A stretch of DNA of 64,000 nt from Acidimicrobiia bacterium (GCA_050249235.1 JBFWQW010000001.1:18145-82144); one strand, 5' to 3'. Positions 28,173-64,000 are shown, counted from the stretch's first letter. Translations and numbers: made by a program. The notes: generated by a model from the sequence alone, not told the origin.

Positions 28173-29379
28173 GCAGCGGATGGCGGTGCTGGAAGCCGCG
28201 GTCGACGGGTTGTCGGTCCCGGCCGGGGGTCGGGCGTTGGCCCGGCTGGTGGCGTTGCGGCACCGGCTGGATGCCGTGCTGGCGTTGGCGGTGGGGGCGT
28301 TCGAGCGGGACGGGCTGTGGGAGATCGACGGGGCCACCTCGATGGTGGGCTGGTTGCGGGACCGGGCCGGGGTCGACCGGCGCGACACCGCCCGGTTGCG
28401 GGCCACCGGCCGCCACCTGGCCCGCCTCCCGGTCGTCGCGGCCGCTGCCGTGAACGGGACGCTGTCGGGCGGGCAGGTCCAGGCCGTCGTGCGGGCCGTC
28501 CCCGACGGGGCGGTGGACGTGATGGCCTCCCAGGAAGCCGACCTGGTCCCGACGCTGGCCGGGTTGACGTTGGCGGACACGGTCACGGTGTTGCAGGCGT
28601 GGCGGGCCCGGGTCGACGCCGACGGCACCGACCCGGGGGTGGAGCCGGTGCGGTCGTTGCAGCTGTCCCAGACCATCGACAACCGGTGGGAAGCGTCGTT
28701 CAGCCTGGACGCCGAAGCCGGCGCAGTGGTCGACACCGCCATCCGCCTGGCCACCACCCGCGACGTTCCCGGGGAGGTGGTGCGGACAGCGGCGGAGCGG
28801 CGGGCCGACGCCCTGGTCGACGTGTGCCGGAGCTTCCTCGACCTCCAACACGGCAAGCGGGGTGGCCGGCACCGGCCGCACCTGAACGTGATCGTCGACA
28901 CCGACCGCGACGGGCACCCCCGGTCGGCCCAGGTGGTCGACGGGCCGGTCCTGCCGGCCCGGTCGTTGCGGCGTTTGTTGTGCGACTGCACGTTGCATCG
29001 GGTCGTGCTCGGCGCCGACAGCACCATCCTCGACCTCGGCCGAGCCACCCGAACCATCCCCGCCCCCCTCTGGAACGCCCTCGTGATCCGCGACCGGCAC
29101 TGCCGCTACCCCGGCTGTGACCGGCCCGCCCACTGGTGCGACGGCCACCACCTCCAACCGTGGGAACACGGCGGGGAGACCCGACCCGACAACCTCGTGC
29201 TCCTCTGCGTCCGGCACCACCACCACCTCCACAAACCCGGCTGGCACGCCAAGCTCCTCCCCGACCTCGCCCTCGAGGTCACCGCACCCGACGGCACCCA
29301 CCACACCAGCCCCGCCCCCCGCACCCTCACCCGAGCCACAGACCCGGGGAGCGGGCCACCCGACCGGGGACCGCCCTGA
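28165..29379 (+). CDS. DUF222 domain HNH endonuclease (REP13E12-type)
   Basis: VFEQRMAVLEAAV... start at GTG 28165 (ATG 28180 is an alternative; the track start 28090 lies in GC-poor sequence). DUF222-like body and C-terminal HNH: RDRHCRYPGCDRPAHWCDGHHLQPWEHGGETRPDNLVLLCVRHHHHLH. Confidence 0.85.
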   Translation: MFEQRMAVLEAAVDGLSVPAGGRALARLVALRHRLDAVLALAVGAFERDGLWEIDGATSMVGWLRDRAGVDRRDTARLRATGRHLARLPVVAAAAVNGTLSGGQVQAVVRAVPDGAVDVMASQEADLVPTLAGLTLADTVTVLQAWRARVDADGTDPGVEPVRSLQLSQTIDNRWEASFSLDAEAGAVVDTAIRLATTRDVPGEVVRTAAERRADALVDVCRSFLDLQHGKRGGRHRPHLNVIVDTDRDGHPRSAQVVDGPVLPARSLRRLLCDCTLHRVVLGADSTILDLGRATRTIPAPLWNALVIRDRHCRYPGCDRPAHWCDGHHLQPWEHGGETRPDNLVLLCVRHHHHLHKPGWHAKLLPDLALEVTAPDGTHHTSPAPRTLTRATDPGSGPPDRGPP

Positions 29380-29555
29380 CCGGCCGTGGCGGCGTCCCGG
29401 GTGGCGGACCGCCGGACGGGGACCACCCTGGGTCGCCGTGGCGGCTTCGTCAGCGTGGCTCGCGCCGGGTCGAGAGCTCACCGCCGCCTCGTTCGGCTCG
29501 ACCGGCAGACGCGTTGGTCTGGGCGTGGACGCGACGGAGGCGCCGCCGCGCCGGG

Positions 29556-29665
29556 CGCGGTCCGGGACGCGGGGCGCCTCGGCTGCTGGCGGGCGTCGTC
29601 CGGAACGCGGCCCCTCAGTGCTCGGCGGGCGCCGTCCTGAACGCGGGCACCTCGGTGCTGGCGGG
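29556..29665. repeat. three imperfect tandem copies of a 36-38-bp unit
   Basis: The anchors TCCGGGACGCGG (29561), TCCGGAACGCGG (29599) and TCCTGAACGCGG (29635) are each followed by ...CTCgGtGCTgGCGGG. Confidence 0.6.
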
Positions 29666-57563: not shown

Positions 57564-57613
57564 GGCGGTGGGGGATGGGGAGGCGTGGCGTGGGGAACGT
57601 CGGGGCGGGCTGG

Positions 57614-58273
57614 TCAGAAGAGCCGGAGCGTGGCCGGCTCGGCGCCGCGGAGGGCGTCGTAGTCGATCTCGACGCACGTGATGCCGCGGTCGGCGGCCAG
57701 CACCCGGGCCTGGGGCTTCACCTGCTGGGCCGCGACGATGCCCCGCACGGGGCGGAGGCGGCCGTCGAGGTCGAGGCGGGCGAGGTAGCGGGTGAGCTGC
57801 TCGACGCCGTCGATGTCGCCGACCCGCTTCACCTCCACGGCGACGGCGCACCCGGACGCGTCACGGCACAGCAGGTCGACCGGGCCGATGCCGGTCGGGT
57901 ACTCCCGCCGCACGAGCACCATGCCGGGCTCGAGGGCGGTGGGGTCGGCGGCCAGCAGCACCTGGAGCTGGGCCTCGACGCCGTCCTTCTGCAGCCCGGG
58001 GTCGATGCCCAGCTCGTGGTCGAGGTCGGCGTGGATGGCATCGATGGTGATCGTGAGCCGCTCGCCCTTCGGTGTGGAGACGGTCCACCGGGTGGGCTCC
58101 TCCACGAGCCGGCAGGGCGCCGACATCCAGTTCAGGGGCTTGTACGCGCGGTCGTCGGCGTGGATCGAGATCGAGCCGTCGGCCTTCACCATCAGCAGCC
58201 GGGTGGCCATCGGGAGGTGGGCGGTGAGCCGGCCCTCGTAGTCGACCGAGCAGGTGGCGATCACCAGTCGCAT
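57614..58273 (-). CDS. nucS: endonuclease NucS
   Basis: 219-aa [19 protein letters not shown]...[15 protein letters not shown] is typical NucS/EndoMS. Confidence 0.95.
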
Positions 58274-58283
58274 GGCGCCGTCG

Positions 58284-59036
58284 CTACCACGCCCGGTCGA
58301 TGGCGTCGAGACAGGCCTCGGCCAGCTCCGGCCGGCAGACGAGGAGGTCGGGCAGCCAGGGGTCGGCCCGGTTGTAGACCAGCGGGGCGCCGTCGGCGCG
58401 CGAGACGTGGAGCCCGGCGGCCGCGGCGACGGCGGCCGGCGCCGCCGAGTCCCACTCGTACATGCCGCCCACGTGGAGATAGGCGTCGGTCTGGCCGGCC
58501 ACCACGGTCATGGCCTTGGCGCCGGCCGAGCCGAGCGACACCAGCTGGGCGCCGATGGCCTCGGCCATGCGCACGGTGACCATGGGCACCCGGTAGCGGG
58601 TGGTGACGACGAGCAGCGGGCGGTCGTCCGGCTTCGGCGGCACCGCCGGTGGATCGTCGGTCGCGTAGACGACGCCCATGGCGGGCAGCGCCACCGCGCC
58701 GGCGGTGAGGGTGCCGCCCTCGGCCAGGGCCACGTGCACGGCCCAGTCAGGCCGGCCCGGCTCGCCGAACTCCCGCGTGCCGTCGAGGGGGTCGACCACC
58801 CACACCCGGTCGCGGTGGAGCCGGCGGCCGTCGTCGTAACCCTCCTCGGAGAGGATCCCGTCGTCCGGCCTGGCGTCGCCCAGCATCGCCATGAGGAGGT
58901 CGTGGGCGCCACGGTCGCCGGCGGCCCGCAAGCGGTCGGCCTGCATGCCCTGGCCGGCCCGGCGGAGCTCGATCAGCAGGTCACCGGCCCGCTCGGCCGA
59001 CGCCCGGGCCAGCCGGTGGTCGTCGGTCGTGGGCAC
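58284..59036 (-). CDS. cysQ: 3'(2'),5'-bisphosphate nucleotidase CysQ (copy 1)
   Basis: GTG 59036. Inositol-monophosphatase-family motifs [15 protein letters not shown] and WDSAAP. Confidence 0.85.
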
Positions 59037-59089
59037 TCGGGCGACGGTAGCGGTCACCCGCGGTGGCCGGGCGCGGGCCGCCGGAGCCG

Positions 59090-59839
59090 TCAGACCGCGG
59101 CCAGGCAGGCGGCGGCGAGCTCGGGCCGGCACACGAGCAGGTCGGGCAGGGCCGGGTCGGGCCCGTTGTAGACGAGCGGGGAGCCGTCGAGCCGGGACAC
59201 GTGCAGGCCGGCCGCGGCCGCCACGGCGACCGGTGCGGCCGAGTCCCACTGGTACTGGCCGCCGGCGTGGGCGTAGACGTCGGCATCGCCCCGCACCACC
59301 GCCATCGCCTTGGCGCCGGCCGAGCCGAGCAGCACCACCTCGGCCCCGAGGGCGGCCGCGATCCGCGCCGTCTCCGGCGGCCGGCGGGTGCGGCTGGTCA
59401 CGACCCGCAGCCAGCCCGAGCGGGGCGGGACGGTGGGAGGATCGTCGGTGGCGTAGACGACGCCGAGCGCCGGGAGCGCGACGGCGCCGACCGAGGCGAT
59501 CCCGCCGACGACGAGGGCGACGTGCACGGCCCAGTCCGCCCGGCCGGGCTCGCCGAACTCCCGGGTGCCGTCGAGGGGGTCGATGATCCAGACCCGGTCG
59601 GCGTCGAGGCGGCCGAGGTCGTCGGCGGCCTCCTCCGAGAAGACGGTGTCGCCCGGTCGGGCCGCGGCGAGGCGCTCGGCGAGCTGCACGTGCGCCCGGC
59701 GGTCGCCCGCGGCCCGGAGCTCGTCGGCCGAGCGGCCTCCCTCGGCCCGCAGGGCCAGCAGCAGCGCGCCTGCGCCGGCGGCCAGCTCCCGGGCGAGTCG
59801 GTGGTCGTCCCCGGTGGGGCTGGCGGCAAATGACGACAA
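59090..59839 (-). CDS. cysQ: 3'(2'),5'-bisphosphate nucleotidase CysQ (copy 2, tandem paralog)
   Basis: 249-aa ORF, collinear with copy 1 ([70 protein letters not shown]). Confidence 0.85.
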
Positions 59840-59882
59840 GATCGGTCAGGAATGTAGCCTGGTGGGTCGTGGGTGATGAAGC

Positions 59883-60809
59883 ATGACCGGGGCCGCCGTC
59901 CAGCACCACTACGAGCTCGGCCACCTGCAGGCGCTCGAGGCCGAGTCGATCCACGTGATCCGCGAGGTCGCCGCCAGCATGGAGCGCCCCGTCCTCCTGT
60001 TCTCCGGCGGCAAGGACTCGATCGTCATGCTCCGGCTGGCCGAGAAGGCGTTCTGGCCGGCCCGCATCCCCTTCCCGGTGATGCACGTCGACACGGGCCA
60101 CAACTTCCCCGAGGTCATCGCCTACCGCGACCGCACCGTCGAGCGGCTCGGCCTGCAGCTGGTCGTGGCGTCCGTGCAGGACGACATCGACGCCGGCCGG
60201 GTGCACGAGGAGACGGGTCCCCGCGCCAGCCGCAACCGGCTCCAGACCACGACGCTGCTGCGCGGGATCGCGGAGGGCGGCTTCGACGCCGTGTTCGGCG
60301 GGGCCCGGCGCGACGAGGAGAAGGCCCGGGCCAAGGAGCGGGTGTTCAGCTTCCGCGACGAGTTCGGCCAGTGGGACCCCAAGAACCAGCGGCCCGAGCT
60401 CTGGAGCCTCTACAACGGCCGCCACCGCAAGGGCGAGCACATCCGGATCTTCCCCCTCTCGAACTGGACCGAGCTCGACATCTGGCAGTACATCGCCGAC
60501 GAGGACATCGAGATCCCGGCGATCTACTACGCCCACCGCCGGCCCGTGGTCAGGCGGGACGGGATGCTGATGGCCGTGAACCAGTTCGTCCAGGTCGCCG
60601 AGGGCGAGGAGTGCACCGAGATGCTCGTGCGCTACCGGACCGTGGGCGACGCCACCTGCACGGCCGCGGTCGAGTCGGCGGCGTCGAACGTCGAGCAGGT
60701 CATCCTCGAGGTGGCGGCCACCCGCATCACGGAGCGGGGCGCCACGCGTGCCGACGACCGGATCTCCGAGGCCGGCATGGAGGATCGCAAGAAGGAGGGC
60801 TACTTCTGA
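59883..60809 (+). CDS. cysD: sulfate adenylyltransferase subunit 2
   Basis: 308-aa ORF. LEAESIHVIREV, LLFSGGKDS and a C-terminus ending KKEGYF. Confidence 0.95.
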   Translation: MTGAAVQHHYELGHLQALEAESIHVIREVAASMERPVLLFSGGKDSIVMLRLAEKAFWPARIPFPVMHVDTGHNFPEVIAYRDRTVERLGLQLVVASVQDDIDAGRVHEETGPRASRNRLQTTTLLRGIAEGGFDAVFGGARRDEEKARAKERVFSFRDEFGQWDPKNQRPELWSLYNGRHRKGEHIRIFPLSNWTELDIWQYIADEDIEIPAIYYAHRRPVVRRDGMLMAVNQFVQVAEGEECTEMLVRYRTVGDATCTAAVESAASNVEQVILEVAATRITERGATRADDRISEAGMEDRKKEGYF

Positions 60810-62047
60810 GCGAGATCCTCCGGTTCGCGACCGCGGGCAGCGTCGACGACGGCAAGTCGACGCTCATCGGGCGGCTGCTCTACGACTCCAAGGCCATCTT
60901 CGAGGACCAGCTCGAGGCGGTCGAGCGCACGTCCCGGCAGCGGGGCGAGGAGACCAACCTGGCCCTGCTCACCGACGGCCTGCGGGCCGAGCGCGAGCAG
61001 GGCATCACCATCGACGTCGCCTACCGCTACTTCGCCACGCCCAAGCGCAAGTTCGTCATCGCCGACACGCCCGGCCACGTCCAGTACACCCGCAACATGG
61101 TCACCGGCGCGTCGACCGCCGACCTGGCCCTCGTGCTCGTCGACGCCCGCAACGGCATCGTCGAGCAGAGCCGCCGCCACGCCTTCCTCGCCACCCTGCT
61201 CCGCGTCCCCCACCTCGTCGTCTGCATCAACAAGATGGACCTGGTCGGCTACGACGAGGACCGCTTCGAGGAGATCAAGGCCGAGTTCCGCCAGTTCGCC
61301 ACCAAACTCGACGTCGCCGACCTCACCTTCGTGCCGATCTCGGCCCTGCTCGGCGACAACGTCGTGCACCGTTCGGAGAACATGCCCTGGTACGAGGGCT
61401 CGTCGCTGCTGCACCACCTCGAAGAGGTGCACATCGCGTCCGACCGCAACCTCATCGACGTCCGCTTCCCGGTGCAGTACGTGATCAGGCCGCGCGATGA
61501 CGCCCACCACGACTACCGGGGCTACGCCGGCCAGGTCGCCGGCGGCGTGCTGAAGGCCGGCGACGAGGTCGTCGTGCTTCCCTCGGGCTTCACCAGCCGC
61601 ATCGAGGCCATCGAGACCATGGACGGCCCCATCGACGAGGCCTTCTCGCCGATGTCGGTCACGGTGCGCCTGGCCGACGACCTCGACGTGAGCCGGGGCG
61701 ACATGATCTGCCGACCCCACAACCGGCCCCACGTCACCCAGGACGTCGAGCTCATGGTGTGCTGGCTGCACGAGCGGCCCCTCCAGGTCGGCGGCAAGTA
61801 CGCCGTGCGCCACACCACCCGGGAGGCCCGCGCCCTCGTGCAGGGCCTCCAGTACCGCCTCGACGTCAACACCCTGCACCGCGACGAGTCGGCCAGCACC
61901 CTCGGGCTCAACGACATCGGCCGGATCTCGCTGCGCACCACCCAGCCGCTCTTCATCGACGAGTACCGCCGCAACCGGTCGACCGGCAGCCTGATCCTCA
62001 TCGACGAGGCCACCAACGCCACCGTCGGCGCCGGCATGATCCTCTGA
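60806..62047 (+). CDS. cysN: sulfate adenylyltransferase subunit 1 (GTPase), not fused to APS kinase
   Basis: LSEILRFATAGSVDDGKSTLIGRLL..., DTPGH and NKMD. No ATG/GTG/TTG is available before the G1 motif. CTG 60806 overlaps the cysD stop (CTGA) and has GAAGGAGGG 7 nt upstream. Confidence 0.9.
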   Translation: MSEILRFATAGSVDDGKSTLIGRLLYDSKAIFEDQLEAVERTSRQRGEETNLALLTDGLRAEREQGITIDVAYRYFATPKRKFVIADTPGHVQYTRNMVTGASTADLALVLVDARNGIVEQSRRHAFLATLLRVPHLVVCINKMDLVGYDEDRFEEIKAEFRQFATKLDVADLTFVPISALLGDNVVHRSENMPWYEGSSLLHHLEEVHIASDRNLIDVRFPVQYVIRPRDDAHHDYRGYAGQVAGGVLKAGDEVVVLPSGFTSRIEAIETMDGPIDEAFSPMSVTVRLADDLDVSRGDMICRPHNRPHVTQDVELMVCWLHERPLQVGGKYAVRHTTREARALVQGLQYRLDVNTLHRDESASTLGLNDIGRISLRTTQPLFIDEYRRNRSTGSLILIDEATNATVGAGMIL

Positions 62048-62048
62048 C

Positions 62049-62367
62049 ATGGCCTCGCTCCGCAGGCTGCGCTCGGCTGCTCCGCATACCGCGGGTGAGA
62101 GGTGCTGCTCCGGCTGGCGCCTGCGCAGCGTTGCTGTGTCGATGGCCTCGCTCCGCGGGCTGCGCTCTGTGAGATGGCCTCGCTCCGCGGGCTGCGCTCT
62201 GTGAGATGGCCTCGCTCCGCGGGCTGCGCTCTGTGAGATGGCCTCGCTCCGCGGGCTGCGCTCTGTGAGATGGCCTCGCTCCGCGGGCTGCGCTCGGCTG
62301 CTCCGCATACCGCGGGTCCCTTGGGCTGCTCCGGCTGGCGCCTGCGCAGCGTTGCCGGGTTGATGGC
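62049..62367 (+). repeat. nested tandem repeat array: 93-bp unit, 4 x 32-bp units, 93-bp unit, 5-nt partial unit
   Basis: Unit starts (ATGGCCTCGCTCCGC...) at 62049, 62142, 62174, 62206, 62238 and 62270, with a partial unit at 62363. The 32-bp unit equals the first 26 nt plus a tail resembling the last 6 nt of the 93-bp unit. The four short units are identical. Confidence 0.9.
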
Positions 62368-62988
62368 ATGACCGACGGCGCTTGGTCCCCCACCGGCGCG
62401 CCGGGGTCTGGGGACGTGGTCTGGCACGCCGGGCTGGTCTCGCCGGAGGCTCGGGCCGCGGCGCTGGGGCACCGGGGGGCGACGGTGTGGCTGACGGGGC
62501 TGTCGGGCTCGGGGAAGTCGACCGTCGCGGTGGAGCTCGAGCGGCGCCTGGTGGAGGCCGGTCGGCCCGCCTACGTGCTCGACGGAGACAACCTCCGCCA
62601 CGGGCTGAACCGCGACCTGGGCTTCGGCGACGACGACCGGGCCGAGAACGTGCGCCGGGTGGGGGAGGTGGCCCGCCTCCTCGCCGACGCCGGCGTCGTG
62701 GCCCTCGTGCCGGTCATCAGCCCCTTCCGCTCGGGCCGGGAAGCGGTCCGCGCCGTGCACCAGGCGGCCGGCGTGCCCTTCCTCGAGGTCTTCGTCGACA
62801 CCCCGCTCGACGAGTGCGAGCGCCGCGACCCGAAGGGCCTCTACGCCCGGGCCCGCGCCGGCGAGCTGTCCGGGATGACCGGCATCGACAGCCCGTACGA
62901 GCCCCCCGAGGCACCAGAGCTGGTGCTGCGGCCCTCCGACGGCGGGCCGGTCGAGCAGGCGGCCCGCGTCGCCGACCTCCTCGTCTGA
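62368..62988 (+). CDS. cysC: adenylyl-sulfate kinase
   Basis: 206-aa [27 protein letters not shown] and PYEPPE. Confidence 0.9.
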
Positions 62989-63174
62989 CCGTGCCGGGGC
63001 GGGGAGCGGCGCCGTGCCCGTGCCCGCGTCCGGCCAGGGACGCGGGCGCGGGCGGACGGCCACCGCTCCCCCGCAGGGCCCGCGACCGGTGCGACGGCCG
63101 CGGGTGTGCTGCTACTGAGAGATAGCATCGGGTGCGGGGACCTGTCAACGGGTCCACCACCCCCGGATGGGGCA

Positions 63175-63465
63175 TCAGGCGGGGCGGGCGGCGCGGGGGG
63201 CGCGGAGGGTGTCGGCCTGGGGGGCGCCGTAGGGGTCGCCCAGGCCGGTGTAGCAGTCGTCGTGGTAGTGCTCGACCCTGTCCCAGCGGCCGTCGACGTA
63301 GACGTTGGCGATCACCTGCTGGCCCTGTTCCCGGGCCACGAACCGCACCCGCTCGCCGCAGCGGGTGCACAGGCTGAGGGTGCCCGGCTCGATGCGTCGC
63401 CGCACGGCCCGGGTGCCGGGGCCGGCGGTGACGGCCCCGGCGATCGGTGACGTGGTCGTGGCCAT
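63175..63465 (-). CDS. hypothetical small protein (96 aa)
   Basis: ATG 63465 inside the 196-aa ORF. ...LSLCTRCGERVRFVAREQGQQVIANVYVDGRWDRVEHYHDDCY.... The upstream in-frame extension runs through repeats and looks non-coding. Confidence 0.55.
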   Translation of the reverse strand: MATTTSPIAGAVTAGPGTRAVRRRIEPGTLSLCTRCGERVRFVAREQGQQVIANVYVDGRWDRVEHYHDDCYTGLGDPYGAPQADTLRAPRAARPA

Positions 63466-63582
63466 GAGAACACCATCGGCACGCCGGGCCCCCGACGTGA
63501 GCCTCCCGCCGGCGAAGCTGCGGACGGTGCAGCCGCATCTTGACGCGGCGCCCCTGGTCGGCGACCCTTTCCCGGCCAGGTC

Positions 63583-63807
63583 GGGGTGCTTCCGCCGTGC
63601 ACCCCGACCCGGCACTGCTCCGTGGCGGCGAGGGCGTCCCGACCGGGGATGGCAGCCGGGGTGCTTCCGCCGTGCACCCCGACCCGGCACTGCTCCGTGG
63701 CGGCGAGGGCGTCCCGACCGGGGATGGCAGCCGGGGTGCTTCCGCCGTGCACCCCGACCCGGCACTGCTCCGTGGCGGCGAGGGCGTCCCGACCGGGGAC
63801 GGCAGCC
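63583..63807. repeat. 3 x 75-bp tandem repeat abutting the ettA stop codon
   Basis: Copies start at 63583, 63658 and 63733 (GGGGTGCTTCCGCCGTGCACCCCGACCCGGCACTGCTCCGTGGCGGCGAGGGCGTCCCGACCGGGGATGGCAGCC). Copies 1 and 2 are identical. Copy 3 differs at one position that I can see (GAT to GAC). Confidence 0.9.
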
Positions 63808-64000
63808 TCAGTGGGCGGCGAGGGGCTTGTACTTGATGCGGTGGGGCTGGTCGGCGTCGCTGCCGAGGCGGCGGTGCCGGTCGGCCTCGTAGTCGCTGAA
63901 GTTGCCCTCGAACCAGCGAACCTCGGAGTCGCCCTCGAAGGCGAGGACGTGGGTGGCGAGCCGGTCGAGGAACCAGCGGTCGTGGCTCACGACGACGGCG
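63808..64000 (-). CDS. ettA: energy-dependent translational throttle protein EttA (ABC-F), C-terminal fragment; the gene continues off the right edge
   Basis: ...SHDRWFLDRLATHVLAFEGDSEVRWFEGNFSDYEADRHRRLGSDADQPHRIKYKPLAAH matches the EttA C-terminus as I recall it. Confidence 0.8.
   Translation of the reverse strand, partial: AVVVSHDRWFLDRLATHVLAFEGDSEVRWFEGNFSDYEADRHRRLGSDADQPHRIKYKPLAAH

Follow-up and report, generated by a model that had tools for sequence, protein, structure and literature searches.

How can a gene keep being translated when a tandem-repeat array lies between its start codon and the stop codon of the gene before it in the operon? The question is raised by the cysN/cysC junction in a 64,000-nucleotide (nt) stretch of DNA from an Acidimicrobiia bacterium (GCA_050249235.1, JBFWQW010000001.1:18145-82144; hereafter the window, from whose first nucleotide coordinates are counted), where an array of 319 nt (62049-62367), made up of a long unit, four short units, a second long unit and the partial unit ATGGC, separates the two genes. 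A first-pass annotation had read the array as a relay of start/stop-coupled mini-open reading frames (ORFs), likened it to the interspersed repetitive units of mycobacteria (MIRUs) and raised the possibility that it had split a fused cysNC gene. The answer that we favor, with moderate confidence, is that a lineage-specific minisatellite entered precisely at the stop/start junction of a cysN and a cysC that already formed separate, translationally coupled genes, and that reinitiation along the relay would keep CysC made. Below, we lay out the architecture that suggests this, the state of the junction in relatives, the competing explanations and the place of the array among known systems.

Architecture of the array and its relay of small frames

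The unit lengths, starts and order given in the first-pass annotation are all present in the sequence (Table 1). The short unit consists of ATGGCCTCGCTCCGCGGGCTGCGCTC, identical to the opening 26 nt of a long unit, followed by TGTGAG; the TGTG agrees with the tail of the first long unit, L1 (TGTGTCG), and not with that of the second, L2 (CGGGTTG), in keeping with the earlier description of the short unit as an internally deleted long unit. All the short-unit boundaries read TGAgATG. Tandem Repeats Finder recovers a period of 32 with 4.8 copies, 100% matches and a score of 310, and both the 26-nt head (six copies in the window) and the long-unit tail (two copies) are expected zero times in shuffled sequence. 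That the four short units are identical points to a recent expansion, and the array probably grew by slipped-strand events or unequal recombination.

Reading onward from the cysN stop, the chain of ORFs described earlier (51, 20 and 33 codons, joined by TGAnATG or ATGA) is exact, and each stop in it lies either 1 nt ahead of a start or overlaps one. This relay is one path among overlapping ORFs, as an ORF begins at every unit ATG. When arrays with zero to eight short units were simulated, the chain ended on the ATGA of cysC every time. With odd numbers of short units, the route runs via TGATG and ATG GCA TGA, that is, through the 41-codon alternative ORF, whose stop overlaps the ATG at 62363 of a two-codon ORF. 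The relay survives any copy number because ATGGC with its flanks, TTGATGGCATGA, places stops in two frames plus an ATG within 7 nt of the cysC ATG; these two frames are thereby closed at the cysC start, and the remaining one is the frame of cysC itself. Over the same simulated range, copy-number change never switched the cysC frame on or off. Since the chain ends on the cysC ATGA whatever the copy number, the array is copy-number neutral, in contrast to contingency repeats. The in-frame fusion of a small ORF to CysC at odd unit numbers was also considered and is ruled out by both arithmetic and simulation.

The small ORFs are not protein-coding-like. By codon position, the G+C content of the array frames is 0.61-0.83, 0.63-0.83 and 0.63-0.84, without periodicity. 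The third-position value (GC3) of 0.63-0.84 compares with 0.96-0.99 in cysD, cysN and cysC, where the second-position value is 0.41-0.53.

Table 1. Features of the cysDNC region and of the array between cysN and cysC
Feature	Coordinates	Strand	Remarks
cysD (sulfate adenylyltransferase small subunit)	59883-60809	+	First gene of the cysDNC operon; NCBIfam CysD, E 4.5e-142; GC3 0.99
cysN	60806-62047	+	NCBIfam CysN, E 2e-179; probable start CTG 60806; stop TGA 62045-47
Long unit L1	62049-62141	+	93 bp; its ATG lies 1 nt past the cysN stop
Relay mini-ORF 1	62049-62204	+	51 codons; entered from cysN TGA 62045-47, c, ATG 62049
Four short units	62142-62269	+	32 bp each; starts 62142, 62174, 62206, 62238; all 100% identical
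Relay mini-ORF 2	62206-62268	+	20 codons; entered through TGA-g-ATG
Alternative ORF	62238-62363	+	41 codons; would be used if the short-unit number were odd; ends TGA 62361-63
Long unit L2	62270-62362	+	93 bp; 89% identical to L1 (over 105 nt)
Relay mini-ORF 3	62270-62371	+	33 codons; entered through TGA-g-ATG; TGA overlaps cysC ATG (62368) as ATGA
Partial unit ATGGC	62363-62367	+	Between L2 and the cysC ATG
cysC (APS kinase)	62368-62988	+	NCBIfam adenylyl-sulfate kinase, E 2.3e-72

Probable translational coupling at junctions with and without the array

Shine-Dalgarno potential was scored as the pairing of the 20 nt upstream of a start with the 16S tail, for which the background median is -4.7 kcal/mol. 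By this measure, there is no Shine-Dalgarno sequence at cysC, either in the window (-3.7 kcal/mol) or in relatives without the array (-2.1 to -3.5 kcal/mol), and the relay ATGs pair at -1.6 to -3.7 kcal/mol. The start of cysN is probably the CTG at 60806, overlapping the cysD stop as CTGA and lying 7 nt 3' of a strong Shine-Dalgarno sequence, AAGGAGGG, with a pairing energy of -13.1 kcal/mol; the homologous place in relatives reads GTGA or TTGA. As cysC has no Shine-Dalgarno sequence, array or no array, it probably depends on termination-reinitiation. Hence, the translation of cysC in this lineage would require ribosomes that come from the upstream cistron.

The relatives show what the junction looks like when it is empty. 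In array-less relatives with readable DNA, cysN and cysC are distinct genes joined in direct coupling: L024-L027 have TGAgATG at the junction (...atgttgTGAgATGtct) and L003 has GTGATG (...atgttgTGATGtct), while on the P0002 contig an 8-nt overlap of the pair is indicated by gene coordinates only. The site is filled in the window, in a contig of another assembly (L022, GCA_050177425.1) and in a metagenome contig (L002), and it is empty in L003, L024-L027 and, again by gene coordinates only, P0002. Given that the genes of these relatives are already separate and coupled, the array is an insertion into an existing stop/start junction.

A comparable situation exists one gene upstream. L003 (6614-6763) and L025 (3606-3761), neither of which has the cysN-cysC array, carry an insert of 150 or 156 nt between cysD and cysN that is absent from the window. 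Here the cysD stop overlaps an ATG (TGATG) served by the same Shine-Dalgarno sequence, AAGGAGGG, and the ORF so opened runs for 49 or 51 codons to a TGA that overlaps the cysN start (GTGA or TTGA). This ORF has a GC3 of 0.68-0.73 and has been kept in both L003 and L025 even though its second half has diverged. Such a bridging ORF supports the idea that inserts persist at these junctions only with a stop/start bridge. The insert also has a conserved stem-loop, CTTCGGTCGACC...GGATCGACCGAAG.

Taken as a mechanism, the reading that we favor runs as follows. Ribosomes finishing cysN would reinitiate successively along the three non-coding-like small ORFs and come to a stop at the ATGA in which the cysC start is embedded; what would make the array tolerable is that each unit begins with an ATG and closes with a TGA, and the relay would be what keeps CysC made because cysC has no Shine-Dalgarno sequence. 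To this extent we infer co-transcription, translation of the small ORFs and reinitiation, and the layout of the small frames is such that they could hand ribosomes from cysN to cysC.

Several points weigh against this reading. At the local G+C content, open stretches of some 31 codons are not improbable. One event, copied four times, gave the internal TGAgATG junctions, which do not amount to four independent signals, and the entry junction TGAcATG may be the ancestral one, so that the independent evidence for selection of a relay is thin. Three successive reinitiations should lower CysC output, which may make the array slightly harmful instead of neutral. L022, the only other assembly that spans the short units, also has four of them, so that the two assemblies show no difference in copy number. 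Finally, the promoter consensus used in the scans reported below is of the Escherichia coli type and might miss an actinobacterial promoter, and the portion of PMC4213456 that deals with the senX3-regX3 spacer reports promoter activity for this MIRU-containing sequence.

Competing explanations and genomic setting

The alternative that survives best, possible in our judgment though unlikely, is a neutral local tandem duplication in which the start/stop pattern is incidental. The ATGs and TGAs would come from a duplicated segment that included or abutted the native TGAnATG junction, and the translation of cysC would owe nothing to the small ORFs, proceeding for instance on an internal transcript or through direct initiation. 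Several features of the array fit this: the short-unit boundary TGTGAGATG is a 9-mer of the native cysN/cysC junction in L024-L027, the unit head ATGGCC is one base off the cysC start ATGACC, the small ORFs do not look coding, and the genome and metagenome scans described below returned no other copy of the unit among the species representatives and one partial copy in metagenomes. However, the lack of a Shine-Dalgarno sequence at cysC, here and in relatives, leaves no visible signal for independent initiation, and no promoter consensus (again E. coli-type) is found in the array. Moreover, the TTGATGGCATGA tail that makes the relay copy-number-proof is retained in L002, whose array tail (...gttgcagggttgATGGCATGA) differs from that of the window in the preceding 7 nt. 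A purely local origin is also hard to square with the occurrence of an identical 32-nt head at a locus of another organism.

That locus belongs to a search for further copies, which in the remainder of the 64-kb window yielded no array unit. Among 185,579 species-representative genomes, an exact-core scan, which needs exact matches, returned 17 loci and no true copy; we judge these to be chance matches since their flanks resemble the unit no better than random sequence does. Several of them are coding, for example those with an ASLRRLR motif, which we take to be aldo-keto reductase-like genes. A metagenome scan, likewise dependent on exact matches, returned one locus, L021 (1233-1330, minus strand), in which a stretch matching the L1 head at 32 of 32 nt gives way to a GCTGCTCC..CTGGCG segment that is similar in part. 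The ORF at this locus ends in TAG, 10 nt before the GTG of trpD; it may instead represent the terminal part of some longer gene, as only 14 nt are present upstream of its ATG and the frame there is open. L021 stems from a different organism, as its trpD has a GC3 of 0.85, versus 0.96-0.99 in the window genes. There was no unit match in viral collections (two scans) or in a blastn search of plasmids, and none to the predicted 51-aa product of the first small ORF in a protein search. The antisense 131-aa ORF, compared with 1.84 billion representatives, matched one unrelated repeat protein only, and an nhmmer profile of the unit, run against 172 kb of collected loci, detected no copies in the flanks of relatives. 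In the collections searched, there is thus one homologous head at another locus and no dispersed family. Separately, repeats in Amycolatopsis marina (L007, 2440-2717) and in an uncultured actinobacterium (L004, about 1039-1445) share a core of 21-24 nt, GGCCTCGCTCCGCRGGCTGCGC(T), with the unit head. One of these is a 103-bp tandem array of 2.7 copies between two co-directional genes and the other a distinct element with three copies. Beyond the core neither is related to the window unit, and the core itself may reflect chance or common origin.

The head upstream of trpD is a lead, at the level of sequence, toward a more ambitious proposal that we regard as rather doubtful at present: the unit may belong to a mobile family of stop-start 'relay cassettes' of Acidimicrobiia-type genomes, which would insert at coupled junctions and be so constructed that ribosomes still reach the downstream start at any copy number. 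Were this so, how many reinitiation steps take place would depend on how many short units are present, and the CysC:CysN ratio would thereby be tuned.

A regulatory or structural role, namely a hairpin of the repetitive extragenic palindromic (REP) type or of the MITE (miniature inverted-repeat transposable element) type, an attenuator or terminator, or an internal cysC promoter, seems to us improbable. The long unit does hold a 7-bp inverted repeat (GCTGCGC...GCGCAGC) and the L1 head a palindrome, CGCAGGCTGCG, and the promoter activity reported for the senX3-regX3 spacer offers a precedent. Against this, the array shows no excess of RNA fold stability (z = +1.83, the energy being weaker than in 97 of 100 shuffles) and no match to the covariance models of Rfam 15, whose sole hit is a chance microRNA match at 63821-63909, far under the gathering score. 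Consensus scans detected no promoter-like or terminator-like site in it. A -10 element of the TANNNT type is impossible because each long unit contains a single TA dinucleotide. No terminal inverted repeats are present in the array, and its inverted repeats are short and at chance level.

We attach very little probability to the proposal that the array split a fused cysNC gene by replacing its interdomain linker. It is true that, on the 632-position model of the bifunctional CysNC protein (NCBIfam NF004035), the match of CysN covers positions 23-430 and that of CysC positions 437-626. These profile matches confirm the earlier identification of the two genes and, since positions 430 and 437 bracket the array, its location at the place of the interdomain linker. 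Yet every one of the best 120 CysC homologues listed stands alone, at about 178-225 aa, and comes from an Acidimicrobiia-type genome, the nearest with a source name belonging to metagenome-assembled genomes of Acidimicrobiales, Acidimicrobiia or Actinomycetia, and in the relatives that lack the array the two genes are separate, their stops and starts adjacent or overlapping. At the junction, GAGMIL is the commonest of the CysN endings in the relatives listed, and the N-terminus of CysC (MTDGA...) lies within their natural variation. The same commonness of GAGMIL led us to reject a rewriting of the last cysN codons by the insertion (ATC CTC versus ATG TTG in relatives). A further case, P0124, with an odd C-terminal extension of CysN, was uninformative, as its cysD and cysN are called in fragments with no cysC downstream.

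An assembly artefact, to which we give scarcely any credence, would account for the way in which same-species short-read contigs break at or near the array (L001, GCA_050187725.1, 99.89% identical, inside cysN; L022 inside L1; L002 24 nt before cysC), but L022, though from a different assembly, aligns to 62078-63657 of the window without a gap and with 2 substitutions in 1580 nt (99.87%), running from the end of L1 through the four short units and L2 into cysC, and so shows that the array is not a product of this one assembly. The metagenome contig L002 is about 95% identical in DNA and 97% in CysC. A search with the C-terminus of CysN retrieved nothing closer than 92% and thus no further contig with the left junction, and an exact look-up of the CysC and CysN of the window returned no identical record.

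Upstream of cysD and divergent from it, two adjacent inositol-monophosphatase/CysQ-like genes and nucS occupy about 57600-59850 on the minus strand. This arrangement is kept in relatives (L001, L003 and L025) and is consistent with a cysDNC operon that produces 3'-phosphoadenosine-5'-phosphosulfate. The window contains two other repeat tracts. Downstream of cysC, at 63582-63806, three near-perfect 75-bp tandem copies lie among minus-strand genes; on one side is the TGA stop (complement of 63808-63810) of an ABC-F-type gene and on the other a small gene for a 96-aa protein (63465..63175, minus strand), and the frame is open across the repeats from the one gene to the other. Each 75-bp unit has a hairpin, GGTCGGGGTGC..GCACCCCGACC, which is conserved in L024 (an 87% relative); the unit is single-copy in L022 (99.9% identical) and L002, which may be real variation or a collapse of short reads. 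The other tract, at 29343-29665, holds degenerate tandem repeats, one of 52 bp x 2 and one of 36 bp x 3.1, at and just past the point where a gene ends (stop at 29379).

The array among known repeat and coupling systems

Four kinds of known systems invite comparison. The first is the class of short upstream ORFs coupled by termination-reinitiation, in the form in which the pertinent part of PMC12548453 presents them: like the array frames, these have a +1 or -4 spacing, no downstream Shine-Dalgarno sequence and no coding signature, and they differ in that a single dedicated small ORF does the work, whereas the array chains three in series, made of repeat units. The second is the fused CysNC of other actinobacteria (NCBIfam NF004035), which has the same two domains in the same order, with the array at the place of the linker; in the present lineage, however, the genes are separate, array or no array. 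The third comprises REP sequences and the bacterial interspersed mosaic elements (BIMEs), enterobacterial repetitive intergenic consensus (ERIC) sequences and MITE-type repeats, which resemble the array in being short, non-coding and intercistronic. In contrast to these, the array has neither a stable hairpin nor terminal inverted repeats, and is tandem instead of occurring as interspersed single copies.

The fourth and closest are the MIRUs, which are the textbook case of repeats that live in operons by preserving translational coupling, and whose long and short size classes are related by internal deletion. The relevant passages of PMC3184786 and PMC12548453 (the latter citing Supply et al. 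1997) describe them as units of 40-100 bp, present at about 40-50 loci per genome within polycistronic transcripts. The same passages state that the ends of the MIRU ORFs overlap the adjacent genes and that both filled and empty sites are known (PMC3184786; PMC12548453). Their insertion at start codons with a -4 coupling is, in the account of PMC12548453 that concerns it, thought to minimize the effect on the downstream gene.

The array shares most of this architecture. It is likewise formed of direct repeats of tens of bp (93 and 32), arranged in tandem, oriented with transcription and situated in a predicted operon; the ends of its small ORFs abut or overlap the flanking stop and start, with a TGAcATG entry and a -4 ATGA exit; filled and empty sites occur among relatives; and its long and short units are related by internal deletion. 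What sets it apart begins with sequence: the best local alignment to MIRU292 of Mycobacterium avium subsp. paratuberculosis has 11 identical nt, and the scores fall within those of shuffles (p 0.08-0.36), in a comparison with this one MIRU unit (sequence from PMC7977185, Table 1). Its host is an Acidimicrobiia-type genome and not a Mycobacterium. We found no description of MIRUs outside mycobacteria in the literature. The scans of the 64-kb window and the exact-match scans of the collections did not show it at 40-50 dispersed loci. Its short unit of 32 bp falls under the MIRU range and is not a multiple of 3, and its relay shifts frame at each unit and still reaches the downstream start. The MIRU match of the first-pass annotation accordingly stands for the architecture and falls for sequence similarity and for the Mycobacterium host, and no dispersed family was found in the window and the collections scanned.

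The weight that this locus can carry is for now moderate because it is one locus and the collections searched gave no dispersed family. Even so, it offers a natural test of serial reinitiation, with three hops and with frame shifts between units tolerated. Going by the sequence, the array is an analogue of the MIRUs and not one of them: it would work as they do with units unrelated to theirs. The same logic, embodied in an unrelated sequence and in another actinobacterial class, would suggest a general rule, whereby a junction without a downstream ribosome-binding site filters the insertions that it receives and lets persist only such as preserve a stop/start relay.

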